From positions 1 through 11,314 of the forward strand of contig CAYRPF010000043.1 of the NCBI GenBank assembly GCA_964426185.1: 11,314 nt of DNA, written 5' to 3'. Of the stretch, positions 2,181 through 11,311 are shown piece after piece (within the stretch, counting starts at the first letter, position 1; each line of letters begins with the position of its first letter). The DNA comes from an uncultured archaeon (lineage in GTDB: Archaea > Asgardarchaeota > Lokiarchaeia > Sigyniarchaeales > Promethearchaeaceae). The notes under the pieces are model-generated. The model was not told where the DNA came from. It was given only the letters and a program-made list of their open reading frames with translations, and did no database searches. The translations under genes were made by a program, and so were the position numbers.

Positions 2181-3371
2181 ATGAATGAAATGAACACAAA
2201 CTGGATTATCATAGTTGACTGCACGGAAAATATGAAAAAAACAGATTTCCGCCCCAGTAGATTTCATGTTGCATTAAAAGGCGTTCAAAAATTTATTCAA
2301 ATGAAATTCAAACTCTTTCCAGAAGAATTTCTAAGTATTTATATGTTTAGTAATAAAACTCAAATTTTAGCTCATTTAAGTCGCAATTCTCAAGATATTT
2401 TAAAGCAGTTAATGTCTCCTAAGTTTGTTCGTAACCAAGTTCCAGAAGGAAACGGAGAAGAATTGTTTTTTGCACTACAGAATGCAGTAGATTCCATAAG
2501 AAATCAAATAAAATTAATCGGAGGGCAAAAAAGCCGCATTATCATTATTTCTGGTTTACAAAAAATTTCATTTACACAAGAATTTAAAAATTTAATTGAA
2601 ATCATGCAGGAATTAAACATTGTAGTTGATATATTTATCCTTTCTAATAATTCTACCAATGAAATTGCAATTACCTCTCAATTTACTCCTTTTTTTAATA
2701 AGTTACATGGAAATCTCAGAATTGAAACATCTAAGCGAGATTTTTTTGACCATTTAATTTCTTATGCTAAAAGAAGTGATATGTTGGTCAATGCTCATCC
2801 ATTGCAAAGAACTGAAGGAGAAGCTACCAATGAATTAGTTGAAATTGCACAAGATTTACGAAAACCCACTGCAGAAGAAATTACTAATTTAAAAGATCCT
2901 TTAAGCATGATGCGGTGCCAAATCTGCTTTTCTAAAAAATCACCCATTGATCACAAGCATTTGAAAACAACTGGACGTTTTTGCCCTCTTTGTGGTATAC
3001 CAATGCATTTATCATGTGCAGGAATGTGGACGGATAAGACGGAAGAAGGAGCTAACTTGTTTCGTTGTCCTTATTGCTATACTCTCTTGAAAATTCCGAT
3101 GTATATCTTAAAAGGAATCAGAAGTCGGAAGTTTTTGGTGTCTGAAGAAGATAAAGAGAAATTTACGGTTAAAATGATTAGGGTAAAAAAAATTCCTCCG
3201 CAGATGGAAGATATGGATTGTGCCTACTGTCAACGTCCAATTATTGATACGAATCAAGTTAAGAAGATTTACAAGTGTTCTCATTGTAATGCATTTTATC
3301 ATGATGATTGTTTGAGTAAAATGTATAAGAAATCGAAAATCTGTGAGTGTTGTGGTAGAAAAATAATATGA
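2181..3371 (+). CDS. VWA-domain protein (Ssl1/p44- or Rpn10-like N-terminus) with two C-terminal C4HC3 RING/PHD-like zinc fingers
   Basis: N-terminus IIIVDCTENMKKTDFRPSRF resembles the first strand/MIDAS region of Ssl1/p44 and Rpn10 VWA domains; 'SRIIIISG' is a further VWA strand. Finger 1 (2916-3077): CQIC...CPLC-x4-H-x2-C...CPYC. Finger 2 (3219-3353): CAYC...CSHC-x4-H-x2-C...CECC. Confidence 0.8.
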   Translation: MNEMNTNWIIIVDCTENMKKTDFRPSRFHVALKGVQKFIQMKFKLFPEEFLSIYMFSNKTQILAHLSRNSQDILKQLMSPKFVRNQVPEGNGEELFFALQNAVDSIRNQIKLIGGQKSRIIIISGLQKISFTQEFKNLIEIMQELNIVVDIFILSNNSTNEIAITSQFTPFFNKLHGNLRIETSKRDFFDHLISYAKRSDMLVNAHPLQRTEGEATNELVEIAQDLRKPTAEEITNLKDPLSMMRCQICFSKKSPIDHKHLKTTGRFCPLCGIPMHLSCAGMWTDKTEEGANLFRCPYCYTLLKIPMYILKGIRSRKFLVSEEDKEKFTVKMIRVKKIPPQMEDMDCAYCQRPIIDTNQVKKIYKCSHCNAFYHDDCLSKMYKKSKICECCGRKII

Positions 3372-3429: not shown

Positions 3430-5514
3430 ATGACCGATAAAAAAAGAAAATGGGTAATTACATCTGCTTGGCCTTACGTTAATGCAATCCCACATTTAGG
3501 TAATTTGATAGGTTCAGTTCTTTCAGGTGATGTTTTTGCTCGTTATTGTCGCTTGAAAGGAGATCAAGTTTTATATGTATCGGGTTCAGATGTCCATGGA
3601 ACTCCAGTTGCTGTGTCCGCTATAGAAGAAAAAGTAACACCCGAAGAGTTGGCATATAAAAATCACCAAACAATTAAAAAACTCTTTGAAAAATGGGAAA
3701 TTTCCTATGATAATTATACCCAAACACATAACCCTGTCCATATTAAGTTTACTCAAGATTTTTATCGCCAAGTAGAGAAAAATGGATTCGTCTCGACAAA
3801 GACGCAAGAAGTATTCTACTGTGAACATGATAATCTTTACTTACCTGATAGATTCGTCGTGGGAATATGCCCATATTGTGGTTCTGAATATGCTCGAGGT
3901 GATCAATGCGATACTTGTGGAAAACTTCTGGAACCTGAAGACTTAATAAATCCAAAATGCAAACATTGCCATAAAACCCCAGTTAAACGTGAAACCACGC
4001 ATTGGTATTTAGATTTTAATAAATGTGAAGATGGAATTCGTAAATTTGTTGAAAATAATAAATATATTCCTGCTAATGCACGAACAATGTCGTTAAACTT
4101 TTTAAAAGAAGGATTGCCAAGCCGGGCGATTACGCGTGATTTAGAATGGGGGATTCCTGCACCATTCAAAGGAGCGGAAAATAAAAGCATCTATGTGTGG
4201 TTTGAAGCCGTTTTGGGATATATTTCTGCAGTTAAGGAATGGGCGGAAAAAATTAAGGAAAATCCTTCCTTATTTGATGAATTTTGGCATGATCCTAATA
4301 TGCAATCTGTCTATTTTATTGGTAAAGACAATATTATCTTTCATTTAATCATATTTCCTGGGTTGTTGGTTGCATATAATAAAGAATTACCTCAAGAAAA
4401 GCAATTTACCATGCCGTATAATGTTTCTTCCACCGAATTTCTTAACTATGAAAATGACAAATTCTCAAAATCGAGAAAAGTAGGAATTTGGATTGATGAA
4501 GCCTTAGAACTTGCTCCCGTGGAGTATTGGCGCTATTCTCTTCTTCGAAATCGACCAGAAAAACAAGATACCAATTTTCTCTGGAATCAATTTGAAAATG
4601 ATATCATGGAGCTGAACGATATTATCGGCAATTTCATTCACCGAACCCTTTCATTTATTTCAAAAAGATTCGAAGGTAAAGTTCCAGAAAAACCTACTGA
4701 TGAAGAACTCGATGAAGAAGATAAAAAGCTGATTGTAATTATTCATTCTGCCCCAGAACGTGTTGGAAATTTATTAGAACATTTTCATCTCAAAGAAGCT
4801 TTAAATGAAATTATTAAAATAGCCAGAAATGGAAATGTATATATAAACAATAAAGCACCTTGGAAATTAATGAAAACTGATAAGAAAAGAGCAGGTTATA
4901 CCTTTTATTTAGCTGCACAAATGGTGAGAACTCTAGCAGTATTATTGACTCCATATATTCCTGGGGTAAGTAAGAAAATTTTTCTTGCGTTAGGTAATAA
5001 CGAATCGCCAGATAAAATTAGATGGGAATCTGCAGCAGAATTGCGGGTTCAACCTCATACCAAAATTCCTCTGGCTAAACCATTATTTCAGAAATTAGAT
5101 GTGAAAGAATTGCAAAAAAAATTGGATTTACTTCACGGAATTGTACCAAATGAAGATACCGAACTTAAAAAGCAATCTTCATCTACTCTAATTTCTTATG
5201 ATGATTTTATTAAATTGGATTTGCGAACTGGAACGATAGTAAATGCAGAAAAAGTTCCCGAAACTTCTCATTTATTGAAACTACAAGTTGATACTGGAGA
5301 AAAATCTCTGCGAACAATTGTCGCAGGTGTAGGAAAAACATATTCTGCAGAAGAATTGGTCGGTACTCAAATAATAGTATTGGTAAATTTAGAACCTAAG
5401 ACCATTAAAGGAATTACCTCTCATGGCATGCTGTTGGCCGTGGATTTGAAAAAGAAGGGTACAACATTATTACGTCCCGAAAAATCAATTCCAAATGGTT
5501 CCAAAATTCGATGA
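3430..5514 (+). CDS. metG: Methionine--tRNA ligase (archaeal type, with C-terminal Trbp111-like tRNA-binding domain)
   Basis: ITSAWPYVNAIPHLGN (HIGH motif), GSDVHG, zinc knuckles (CPYC...CDTC...CKHC), ITRDLEWGI, YVWFEA, FIGKDNIIFH, KFSKS (KMSKS motif), and a C-terminal OB domain (ISYDDFIKLDLRTG...NLEPKTIKGITSHGMLL). Confidence 0.98.
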   Translation: MTDKKRKWVITSAWPYVNAIPHLGNLIGSVLSGDVFARYCRLKGDQVLYVSGSDVHGTPVAVSAIEEKVTPEELAYKNHQTIKKLFEKWEISYDNYTQTHNPVHIKFTQDFYRQVEKNGFVSTKTQEVFYCEHDNLYLPDRFVVGICPYCGSEYARGDQCDTCGKLLEPEDLINPKCKHCHKTPVKRETTHWYLDFNKCEDGIRKFVENNKYIPANARTMSLNFLKEGLPSRAITRDLEWGIPAPFKGAENKSIYVWFEAVLGYISAVKEWAEKIKENPSLFDEFWHDPNMQSVYFIGKDNIIFHLIIFPGLLVAYNKELPQEKQFTMPYNVSSTEFLNYENDKFSKSRKVGIWIDEALELAPVEYWRYSLLRNRPEKQDTNFLWNQFENDIMELNDIIGNFIHRTLSFISKRFEGKVPEKPTDEELDEEDKKLIVIIHSAPERVGNLLEHFHLKEALNEIIKIARNGNVYINNKAPWKLMKTDKKRAGYTFYLAAQMVRTLAVLLTPYIPGVSKKIFLALGNNESPDKIRWESAAELRVQPHTKIPLAKPLFQKLDVKELQKKLDLLHGIVPNEDTELKKQSSSTLISYDDFIKLDLRTGTIVNAEKVPETSHLLKLQVDTGEKSLRTIVAGVGKTYSAEELVGTQIIVLVNLEPKTIKGITSHGMLLAVDLKKKGTTLLRPEKSIPNGSKIR

Positions 5515-5672
5515 ATGAAATTTTCTGTAATTATTCTTTTTTCATCTCCCTTGATCTTTTACTGTTCAATTAATAGATTTTTAACACCCGTATAAAATTC
5601 AAATCCACATAAATTGTTTTGATATATCTTGAAATAAAAAAATTGATAAATAATTAGAACTATAAATCAATC

Positions 5673-5680
5673 GGAGGCGA
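5673..5680 (+). promoter_or_regulatory. Shine-Dalgarno sequence GGAGGCGA for the selenoprotein gene
   Basis: GGAGGCGA (one mismatch to the archaeal consensus GGAGGTGA) ends 4 nt before the ATG at 5685. A GC-rich motif like this stands out in the very AT-rich intergenic region. Confidence 0.85.
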
Positions 5681-5684
5681 TCCG

Positions 5685-6008
5685 ATGGAAATCTCGGAGC
5701 AAGCCAAGGCATTTTTAGAACGGCACAAGAATGATTTTGAAAATCCAGTACTTTTAGTTTACTATGCACGATCTAAAGGTTGATGAGGAATTCAACGGAA
5801 AGTTAAGGTGAAGTATCAAGAATCGCCTTTTAAATCAGATAATCCTGATAATAATTTGCATTGGGGAAAAGCAAATTTTATCCCATATCCAGTAGAAGGA
5901 TGTCCCGTATCAGTATATCTCGATACGGAAATGCAAACTTTGGTTGAAAAGGCGATGATTGATATGGAAAAAATGGGAATGTACAAATTCCTTACCTTGA
6001 CCTATTAA
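5685..6008 (+). CDS. HesB-like (seleno)protein, 107 aa, with two adjacent UGA codons predicted as Sec33-Sec34 (motif KG-U-U-G)
   Basis: ATG 5685 is in frame with the track ORF at 5808 (123 nt = 41 codons); the only interruptions are TGA TGA at 5781-5786. Translation: MEISEQAKAFLERHKNDFENPVLLVYYARSKGUUGIQRKVKVKYQESPFKSDNPDNNLHWGKANFIPYPVEGCPVSVYLDTEMQTLVEKAMIDMEKMGMYKFLTLTY. The N-terminal 'M.IS..AK.FL', a beta strand leading to a Gly-flanked Sec/Cys, and C-terminal 'VYLD......E...ID' recall HesB/IscA-fold proteins and the methanococcal HesB-like selenoprotein. Strong SD upstream, SECIS downstream. Confidence 0.85.
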
Positions 6009-6013
6009 CCAAC

Positions 6014-6108
6014 TCAAGAAAAAGCATTACTAAATGATAAAATCTCTCAAAGTGAAGGAGTTTTTTGATAGAAATGGCAAAAATTCGTGCTTTTTCTTGA
6101 ATTTTTTC
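6014..6108 (+). terminator. Perfect 13-bp inverted repeat enclosing the SECIS, followed by oligo-T (probable transcript 3' end)
   Basis: TCAAGAAAAAGCA (6014-6026) is the exact reverse complement of TGCTTTTTCTTGA (6088-6100), followed by ATTTTTTC (6101-6108). Confidence 0.6.
6024..6078 (+). ncRNA. Eukaryote-type (form 1) SECIS element in the 3' UTR
   Basis: A6034-TGAT(6035-6038) opposite TGAT(6066-6069) gives the non-Watson-Crick quartet with tandem G.A pairs. Helix II: AAAA(6039-42)/TTTT(6062-65), a U.U mismatch, then CTCT(6044-47)/GGAG(6057-60). AAA at 6049-6051 lies 11 nt after ATGA, in the apical loop. Helix I: CATT-CT(6025-31)/AG-AATG(6070-76). Confidence 0.85.
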
Positions 6109-9361: not shown

Positions 9362-10333
9362 TCATTTCACTGGAAGTTCATATTCATGACATGTGTAGTT
9401 TTCCTTTAACTTTACTTGCCCATTTATAAATTGAGTGGCAAATTGCCCGCAATTGGAACCTATAGCATTCTCTTCCCATTCTCCGATGCTTAATATGCAC
9501 TCATAACCATATTCTCGAAAAGAATCCCGAACTTTTAGATTGTTTAACAGATTTTGAGTGATTTTACTTTTCAATTGATTTTCTTTTGCACGGTTAGTAG
9601 GATTAATTGGAGTAATTTTAATTAAGTATTTATCTGGATTAAAGAAAGGTAAAAGTTTTGCGGGTTGAAGATCAACAGATTCTTCTACAGCGAAATTTAG
9701 TGTAATTTTTCGATCACCTTTTTCAAACCAACGATCCCCAAAGGTGGAAATTTGTGCAAAATTCCAAATAGGAACTGGGATAAGAGATTGTCGCATTTTT
9801 TGATCGGTAGAATGTATTGAAAATTGTAATTGGAAATGGCCGTTTCGATAAAATTTTTGCTTGATTTCTAATAAATGTTCAAAAAATGACCCCGCATTTT
9901 TAGGAGCAATTGTACTAATGCATGGTATTAATCCAGGAGCTTTGATTAGATGAGGGAGGTCTTTTAATAATTCTAATACATTATCGTTTAAACTGGGTTC
10001 TCCCATTCGGGCAAATTGGATTTTGAATTTTTTAACAGGAATTTCTAAATTCGGATAATATTGAGTGATCATATGCTCTAATTGAGCCCACATTCCTTCT
10101 TTAGAAACTTTACCATGATAATATTCTCCTGCATCGCACATTAAACATCCGATAGGGCAACCAAATAAGGTAGAAAGGATTAGAACCCATTTTTCTTCTC
10201 TTGAATGGGGCGGTTGTATACTATGAACAAATTCTAGAATTTCCCCACCATATCGCCCAATATATAAAGTAGCCAAATTCTGTTTCCCAAACTTTCGAAG
10301 TATTTCAATTTCCAACAATTTCACCTTTATCAA
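9362..10333 (-). CDS. Radical SAM protein, RlmN/Cfr-like (class A methyltransferase-related), short form
   Basis: CxxxCxxC (GCPIGCLMC, first Cys at 10159-10157), RMGEP motif, LQFSIHS, and C-terminal SNCGQ (Cys at 9451-9449). It lacks the RlmN N-terminal helical domain. Start is TTG 10333 or GTG 10324. Confidence 0.85.
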   Translation of the reverse strand: MIKVKLLEIEILRKFGKQNLATLYIGRYGGEILEFVHSIQPPHSREEKWVLILSTLFGCPIGCLMCDAGEYYHGKVSKEGMWAQLEHMITQYYPNLEIPVKKFKIQFARMGEPSLNDNVLELLKDLPHLIKAPGLIPCISTIAPKNAGSFFEHLLEIKQKFYRNGHFQLQFSIHSTDQKMRQSLIPVPIWNFAQISTFGDRWFEKGDRKITLNFAVEESVDLQPAKLLPFFNPDKYLIKITPINPTNRAKENQLKSKITQNLLNNLKVRDSFREYGYECILSIGEWEENAIGSNCGQFATQFINGQVKLKENYTCHEYELPVK

Positions 10334-10399: not shown

Positions 10400-11311
10400 T
10401 TATTTTATTAACTCGCTTTTGCACAATTCCATAGCTGTTTTAATTCCGTCTCCCATTGATAGGCTTATTTGCCTGTATTGAGGATGAACGAGGTCTCCAA
10501 TTAAAAAAAGCCTACGAGATTGGAATAATTCGTTTTTTTGTGTTTTTAAATATTTTTCAATTAAAAACGAGTTGGGGATTCGACCGATAGCCACTATAAT
10601 TAAATCAACCTCAAAATAGGGTAGATGTTTTGCAGATGAAGAAAAAATTCGAATTTGTTCATTCTTCAAGGATATATTGGAAATTGGAAAATTTAACTGG
10701 ATTTTGATGTTGTTCTTTTCTCCAACTAAGTTTTGTAAACGTGAAATTGCTCTTATTTTAGAAGATCTTACTAAAATTATAACTTCATTTCCTTTCTGGA
10801 CCAAATTTAAGGCATAATCAAACGCGACATCACCGCTACCAATTATTGCGATTCTCTTTTGAGTTGAATTTATATTTTTTATTTCGTAATAAAGCTTTTG
10901 CTGCTTAAATCCCTCTGATTCACCCGCTACATCTAGTTTTTTAGGCTGCGAGCCAGTTGCAAGTACTAAGTAGGATGATTGGAACTTTCCATATCTGGTT
11001 TCTATTTGAAATAAATTTTGCAAAAAATCTATACGATTTACTCGCAATTGTTTAAAATTGAGACGGTAATTTTGGATAATTTCAGTAAATATTTCACATA
11101 ATTTTTTCCCAGATATTCCTTGAGGAAATGTAATCAGATTTTCAATTAGAAAAGCATTTTTTACACAACCACCAATTTCTTCACCAATTAGTAAATAAGA
11201 GGTTCCTTCACGTTGTAGTTGTAAAGCAGTAGATATTCCTGCCGGTCCGGCTCCAATGATTATTATTGAATGATAATTCTCCCTATTTTTCATATTCTCC
11301 CTATTTTTCAT
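10400..11311 (-). CDS. NAD(P)/FAD-dependent oxidoreductase, thioredoxin reductase (TrxB)-like fold, lacking the redox CxxC
   Basis: IIIIGAGPAG (FAD), IGG, LATGS, IAIIGSGDVAFD (NAD(P)H), AIGRIPN and LIGD...YRQ...GDG. The 5' end lies in an 18-bp tandem repeat at the window edge, so the true start is uncertain (ATG 11293, 11311 or further upstream). Confidence 0.88.
   Translation of the reverse strand: MKNRENMKNRENYHSIIIIGAGPAGISTALQLQREGTSYLLIGEEIGGCVKNAFLIENLITFPQGISGKKLCEIFTEIIQNYRLNFKQLRVNRIDFLQNLFQIETRYGKFQSSYLVLATGSQPKKLDVAGESEGFKQQKLYYEIKNINSTQKRIAIIGSGDVAFDYALNLVQKGNEVIILVRSSKIRAISRLQNLVGEKNNIKIQLNFPISNISLKNEQIRIFSSSAKHLPYFEVDLIIVAIGRIPNSFLIEKYLKTQKNELFQSRRLFLIGDLVHPQYRQISLSMGDGIKTAMELCKSELIK

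Follow-up and report, generated by a model that had tools for sequence, protein, structure and literature searches.

Positions 5685–6008 (forward strand) of the window, the 11,314-nucleotide stretch of Lokiarchaeial DNA analyzed in the present study, comprise a single real gene of 107 codons, the frame of which is conserved across two adjacent UGA codons. Both UGA codons are almost certainly read through, and selenocysteine (Sec, U) is very probably incorporated at each of codons 33 and 34. The predicted product has an IscA/HesB fold and belongs to the G-U-U-G subfamily of a Lokiarchaeial family related to the bacterial CC/Se motif proteins. Its vicinal Sec-Sec site is without a listed prokaryotic precedent and the archaeal family is uncatalogued in the open-access literature; the recoding signal and the fold are already known.

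The frame opens at ATG 5685, 7 nt downstream of the Shine-Dalgarno (SD) sequence GGAGG (5673–5677, forward strand). It continues through 32 sense codons, GGT-TGA-TGA-GGA (the two TGA codons at 5781–5786), and 73 sense codons to TAA (6006–6008), exactly as a preliminary description of this DNA stated. Gene callers list a 66-amino-acid C-terminal fragment starting at GTG 5808–5810, and this fragment is also the database entry. This start is spurious; it is unconserved in orthologues and, as the preliminary description stated, lacks a comparable SD, no SD-like word being present directly upstream of it. The TGA codons ending frames at 3371, 5514, 6988, and 9362, which were described as ordinary stops, were verified in the sequence. 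The stop at 5514 belongs to the upstream neighbor metG (methionyl-tRNA synthetase; 3430–5514, forward strand; assigned by Pfam). A perfect 6-bp inverted repeat (5670–5686) overlaps both the SD and the first base of the start codon and could mask the ribosome-binding site. This repeat also scores as a minus-strand terminator-like site and is not evident in orthologues.

A protein-database search with the read-through protein returned only its own 66-amino-acid fragment, and the detection of orthologues needed genome-level searches that read through stops. GenBank splits the gene of P. syntrophicum MK-D1 into two hypothetical proteins, DSAG12_02424 (32 amino acids) and DSAG12_02423 (67 amino acids), and the N-terminal piece of the L. 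ossiferum gene is annotated there as NEF87_000067. The host, whose genome of 3.26 Mb is 92% complete, belongs to the same genus as Ca. Harpocratesius repetitus FW102. In a search of 61 relatives, the two-TGA gene was present in 8 genomes, alongside one-TGA paralogues. All 8 genome orthologues carry G-U-U-G at a protein identity of 35–72%, and the paralogues found first carry G-U-C-G. In-frame TGA-TGA was also detected in orthologues on metagenome contigs. Three closed genomes, those of P. syntrophicum MK-D1, Ca. L. ossiferum B35, and Ca. Harpocratesius repetitus FW102, carry an orthologue. A profile search identified the family in 17 of 400 genomes of the phylum, mostly within the host's own family (12/13), with at most four paralogues each.

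Purifying selection acts on both halves of the gene. In the codon alignment, TGA-TGA is unchanged in all 10 orthologues and the flanking Gly codons vary among GGT, GGA, GGG, and GGC. The dN/dS ratios of unsaturated pairs were 0.07–0.44 upstream of the UGA codons and 0.05–0.20 downstream (10 orthologues). The preliminary description regarded a lack of conservation in the upstream 32 codons as evidence against read-through; these codons are conserved. No conserved restart codon was present downstream of the UGA codons in the 10 orthologues, and three of them have none within 30 codons. In the host genome, TGA ends 423 of 2281 open reading frames (ORFs) of at least 150 amino acids (18.5%), TAA ends 66%, and 16 end in TGATGA; TGATGA by itself is not beyond chance. 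However, the combination of a conserved in-frame TGA-TGA, varying Gly codons, constraint on both sides, the absence of a restart, and a lokiSECIS is beyond chance.

An exhaustive protein search gave 53 matches. Some were genuine Cys-Cys versions, others were N- or C-terminal pieces of the split gene, and others had W at the site. Trp at this position had been named in the preliminary description as a finding that would speak against Sec. The 'WW' and 'SW' proteins proved to be TGA translated under code 4 in 7/7 cases with readable DNA, and homologues have UU, UC, CC, or SU at codons 33–34. An independent Logan re-assembly of run SRR15988949 gave exactly the Harpocratesius protein, one of the W-containing entries. 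Independent assemblies, including this one, exclude in practice an assembly error as the source of TGATGA.

An element at 6034–6069 (forward strand) conforms to the published definition of a lokiSECIS, namely, AUGA, a 9-bp stem, an 11-nt A-rich loop ending in (A)G, and then GA or AA, located just behind the stop codon (PMC4989117). This eukaryote-like type I element consists of AUGA, a 9-position stem with 7 of 8 pairs canonical, an 11-nt loop that contains AAA, ends in AG, and has A at three of its first five bases, and then GA. It starts 25 nt after the stop codon and 247 nt after the second UGA. The same spacing was found in the host genome behind selD, a VhuD/MvhD-like gene with two UGA codons, and all four UGA-bearing paralogues. 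The strict pattern was matched by 11 of 14 UU genes and 18 of 28 single-U genes, in comparison with none of 5 Sec-free homologues and 5 of 2244 ordinary genes, with selD among the latter five. The three UU genes outside the strict pattern have a variant loop, an AGGA core, or a contig ending 78 nt after the stop codon. A looser test was positive for 15/17, among them each of the 8 UU orthologues taken from genomes. Among the UU orthologues, that at L071:705–790 has a SECIS-like hairpin with the core AGGA instead of AUGA. A Cys-Cys (TGC-TGT) gene nested among the U-C genes (L068:117–500) has a SECIS remnant in which the core AUGA is replaced by UUGA; this gene looks like a recent Sec-to-Cys conversion.

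In the unedited alignment of the stem, 80% of cells were paired and 8/8 pairs had double changes in the +1 register, the other slid registers giving 28–60%; kinship inflates these counts. A pairing count of 227/232 is circular because the elements had been selected for pairing. Folding of 6025–6078 (forward strand) predicted a short lower helix beneath the element. The minimum free energy was no better than that of shuffles (z 0.5) because non-canonical G.A pairs are unscored; folding of a single sequence says little about kink-turn elements. A covariance model, in which the stem was off by one column in part of the alignment, ranked the SECIS of the C86 paralogue first (E 0.98), and the window element was not among its 5 hits. 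No conserved RNA structure was found immediately 3' of the UGA codons (consensus energy −0.02 kcal/mol), which leaves a bacterial-type SECIS or SRE unsupported. The 3'-UTR element, at a distance of 247 nt, is therefore the signal. In several orthologues and paralogues, the terminator is a TGA less than 35 nt from the SECIS, and in one of them it is TGA-TGA; this fits the minimal UGA-SECIS distance rule proposed for recoding (PMC4989117). In one orthologue (L078/L079; match 1212–1523 in L078), TGA-TGA occupies codons 33–34 and apparently also serves as the terminator 18 nt before the SECIS. One hexamer in this mRNA apparently has two meanings.

The preliminary description called for a search for the Sec machinery. 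In the host genome, genes for tRNA-Sec (C3:27671–27757, above the Rfam cut-off), SelD with its own in-frame UGA and SECIS, SepSecS, and SelB/EFSec all passed their cut-offs. However, a PSTK-like gene was below the curated cut-off despite an E value of 1.5e-28. The tRNA-Sec is the sole UCA-anticodon tRNA reported by ARAGORN, and tRNA-Trp(CCA) is present. Asgard genomes were previously classed as Sec users on the basis of at least three machinery components and a known selenoprotein (PMC11227280). The host genome belongs to this class, with SelD-Sec and a VhuD/MvhD-like protein as the known selenoproteins. The VhuD/MvhD-like gene (C88:8397–9000, minus strand) contains two in-frame TGA codons, is followed by a lokiSECIS, and lies downstream of an HdrA-like frame with TGA codons, a known Loki arrangement. 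As in established selenoproteins, the in-frame UGA of the window gene is aligned with Cys of homologues, and both flanks are conserved.

The alignment with paralogues is gap-free, and they carry U-C, C-C, or S-U at codons 33–34. Further G-U-C-G paralogues are located at C86:1069–1365 and C16:15353–15655 (both minus strand), each followed by a lokiSECIS; the loop of the C16 element is long and type II-like. In a midpoint-rooted tree (72 rows, 99 columns), the UU genes fall into a single clade (100/96) within the U-C group. The UU paralogue of contig C15, which has a very long branch, changed position between two trees, grouping with the U-C genes in one and with the UU clade in the other. The S-U variant, which has its own SECIS, falls inside the UU clade, and judging from its sequence, this homologue shows that position 2 alone can serve as a Sec site. 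A U-C (Sec-Cys) paralogue is the most likely ancestor of the UU subfamily, its second Cys having been converted; the rooting is uncertain.

A SECIS scan of the whole genome revealed another gene (C42:2045–2566, forward strand; 173 codons), unrelated to the window gene, with Cys-TGA-TGA (TGA codons at 2408–2413) and a lokiSECIS (2550–2584) overlapping the gene end. It had no NCBIfam match. Of the 161 genomes of the class, 132 have a homologue. Adjacent TGA-TGA, as C-U-U or D-U-U, was found in all 30 inspected homologues, 21 of which passed the SECIS pattern. Among the unlisted selenoproteins of Lokiarchaeia, this one is probably the most widespread. Tandem UGA decoding therefore appears to be a general capacity of the lineage. 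This strengthens the case for Sec-Sec, and the window gene is less of a singleton.

The AlphaFold model (pLDDT 91, pTM 0.82) places residues 33–34 in the turn between strands 21–32 and 35–46, at the tip of a hairpin (DSSP of the model). Its best structural matches were IscA, SufA, and DsrR, with IscA 1r94 first in Foldseek (E 5e-6, TM 0.55); the VIA match had Z 8.9 and an rmsd of 2.9 Å over 89 residues. A sequence search of the PDB gave no match. The fold is thus predicted to be shared with the A-type Fe-S carriers IscA and SufA (PF01521). The sequence match to PF01521 is weak (residues 2–52, 17.7 bits) and under the cut-off of 26.3. In IscA, three Cys are conserved, two of them as ligands in a C-terminal Cys-Gly-Cys. 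In contrast, the C-terminal Cys pair is absent from the window protein, and none of the UU orthologues has a Cys in its last 30 residues. An extra C-P-C near residues 73–75 occurs in many UU orthologues and is not invariant.

The sequence is closer to the CC/Se motif family NF041239 (Moor_selen_rel; Pfam PF28096), which all 17 family members matched (best E 1.8e-9). The window protein scored 24.7 bits and the C15 Cys-Cys paralogue 33.8 bits, both below the curated cut-off of 40. HHalign aligned the family profile full-length with the bona fide NF041239 member P0061 (62.7 bits) at a probability of 96% (E 3e-9, 92 columns), with U-U placed exactly on C-C. The two share a similar size and the vicinal motif after the first strand. 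The CC/Se family is bacterial and has one Sec in a CxxU motif (PMC13188914, Table 1). In contrast, the window gene is archaeal and has two adjacent predicted Sec residues and a eukaryote-like 3'-UTR SECIS. The HesB-like selenoprotein of Methanococcales and bacteria (TIGR01911) is also a small IscA-related selenoprotein (PMC11097638). However, it has a single Sec in the motif UxGP (PMC13188914), whereas the window protein has G-U-U-G-I. None of the 17 members matched TIGR01911 at E≤10, and it was found in none of 5 genomes; the M. jannaschii control was positive. Therefore, the HesB-like label of the preliminary description is appropriate for the modeled fold, but not for the sequence. The protein has the architecture of an A-type carrier and is related to the CC/Se proteins, yet formally it belongs to none of IscA, TIGR01911, and NF041239.

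The preliminary description proposed that both UGA codons are decoded as Sec. The UU/UC/CC/SU correspondence, SECIS, machinery, and fold all argue for this proposal, which we regard as highly likely. The most serious alternative, to which we assign a small probability, is that both UGA codons are read through and only one is decoded as Sec. The other would be Cys or a near-cognate residue, and the product would be mostly U-C or C-U. Cys insertion at UGA occurs elsewhere, and here it would come about by thiophosphate mischarging of the Sec pathway or a dual meaning of UGA, as in Euplotes. The prevalence of U-C among paralogues indicates that Cys works at position 2. However, no second UCA-anticodon tRNA was found in the host genome. 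Moreover, if Cys were sufficient, TGA could revert to TGY in one change; TGA was kept in 10/10 orthologues with synonymous sites near saturation. The S-U homologue with a SECIS, in which position 2 is the only Sec site, also argues against this alternative.

Programmed termination appears very improbable as a full account. UGA-UGA would then act mainly as a selenium-sensitive stop, with the 32-residue peptide as the usual product and the full-length protein rare or regulatory (a selenium sensor). UGA stops are common in the host genome, two successive recoding events are presumably inefficient, and the L078 orthologue apparently terminates at UGA-UGA beside its SECIS. However, the 73 downstream codons are under constraint equal to that upstream and complete one compact fold, of which the 32-residue piece supplies one helix and one strand only. 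Attenuation is compatible with double Sec insertion as a side effect.

The probability of two separate small genes (32 and 63–67 amino acids) or a pseudogene is negligible. Databases hold the gene in the former way and TGATGA double stops exist in the host genome. However, the codon alignment and SECIS pattern refute this model: there is no conserved restart codon, the stops never drift to TAA despite its predominance, uninterrupted Cys-Cys homologues exist, and SECIS occurrence follows UGA occurrence. A reading of UGA as Trp throughout the lineage or globally, suggested by the several W-W database proteins, is similarly refuted because those with readable DNA are code 4 artefacts of gene callers, TGA terminates metG and the long ORFs counted above, and true-sense homologues carry Cys or Ser, not Trp.

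We propose that Sec is inserted at both codons as follows. EFSec would be recruited through the single 3'-UTR SECIS and would deliver Sec-tRNA-Sec to two consecutive A-site UGA codons, yielding Gly-Sec-Sec-Gly. UGA codons only a few tens of nt from the SECIS would keep terminating. SBP2 is not known from Asgards. The resulting protein would be small and IscA-shaped, and its central β-hairpin would carry a vicinal diselenol at the tip. Since two insertions are required, the yield of the full-length protein would drop steeply under scarce selenium.

The window gene stands alone behind metG. Harpocratesius and Lokiarchaeum share this synteny and Promethearchaeum does not; the metG neighborhood is uninformative on function. 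The gene at 2181–3371 (forward strand), which is next to metG also in Harpocratesius and Lokiarchaeum, encodes a protein of eukaryote-like architecture, in which an Ssl1/VWA domain is joined to RING/PHD-like zinc fingers at the C-terminus. On the minus strand, the window further encodes a 323-amino-acid protein with CxxxCxxC (9362–10333; radical-SAM-like by eye, no Pfam match at E≤0.1) and a thioredoxin-reductase-like flavoprotein (Pyr_redox_2) without a CxxC motif (10400–11311). In the host genome, an operon at C15:29712–33660 (minus strand) encodes an ArsR regulator, a Cys-rich 132-amino-acid protein, a ferredoxin, AhpD/CMD, a DGC-GcvH fusion, two DGC proteins, a Cys-Cys CC/Se-like paralogue, and the second UU paralogue of this genome. 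The latter is the last gene, adjoins the Cys-Cys paralogue, and has Q-U-U-G and its own SECIS. One bacterial CC/Se gene is followed by genes for an SBF (Acr3-type family) transporter, Usp, and ArsR. Vicinal CU/CC motifs have been described in metal-handling selenoproteins (bioRxiv 10.1101/2022.07.06.499078). Because of the C15 operon, the bacterial CC/Se neighborhood, and these motifs, we tentatively speculate, at somewhat less than even probability, that the protein functions in soft metal or metalloid binding or trafficking (As(III), Hg, or Cu type ligands); the metalloid part relies on two neighborhoods, both of relatives. A diselenide/selenol redox or selenium-carrier switch is a less likely function. 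An oligomeric Fe-S carrier with ligands at the hairpin tip is more doubtful still, and some other function is equally so.

The seven previously reported Lokiarchaeial lokiSECIS families are SelD, HdrA, VhuD/FrhD, VhuU/FrhA, Prx-like, AhpF-N-like, and DsbA-like (PMC4989117, PMC11227280). The window gene shares their SECIS grammar, SECIS position, and machinery. A survey of more than 400 Asgard genomes in 2024 reported seven selenoprotein families; its queries were mainly families already known (PMC11227280). None of them is HesB- or CC/Se-like, and neither the window family nor the C42 family is included. Thus, published Asgard selenoproteomes were undercounted; the family was missed despite 3–4 paralogues per genome in the family of MK-D1. 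The preliminary description considered back-to-back Sec insertion to be very rare. No UU motif appears in an inventory of 119 prokaryotic families from 2026 (PMC13188914), and the closest spacing of UGA codons cited for one SECIS is that of SelL, two codons apart (Mariotti et al., PMC4989117). However, the rarity is qualified by the second Lokiarchaeial family and by algal PDI_e, the GUGUU motif of which contains a predicted consecutive Sec-Sec, described as the first such case (PMC7539508). PDI_e also has a 3'-UTR SECIS; however, it is eukaryotic, has a thioredoxin fold and three Sec, and is unrelated to the window protein in sequence and fold. In the open-access literature, it is the sole precedent that we found for adjacent Sec-Sec and is likewise only predicted.

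Three closed genomes, two of them from cultured organisms, carry the gene, and the family provides natural UU, UC, CC, and SU variants of one fold. Consecutive-codon Sec insertion by SECIS and EFSec without SBP2 is therefore testable, as is the comparison of a vicinal diselenol with Sec-Cys or Cys-Cys. We consider it likely that Lokiarchaeia routinely decode adjacent UGA codons as Sec-Sec with a single eukaryote-like 3' SECIS, without SBP2, and in at least two unrelated families. If this is true, eukaryote-style processive Sec insertion would predate eukaryotes. The site would also be the first natural prokaryotic vicinal diselenol or diselenide, with a metal(loid) or selenium chemistry of its own.
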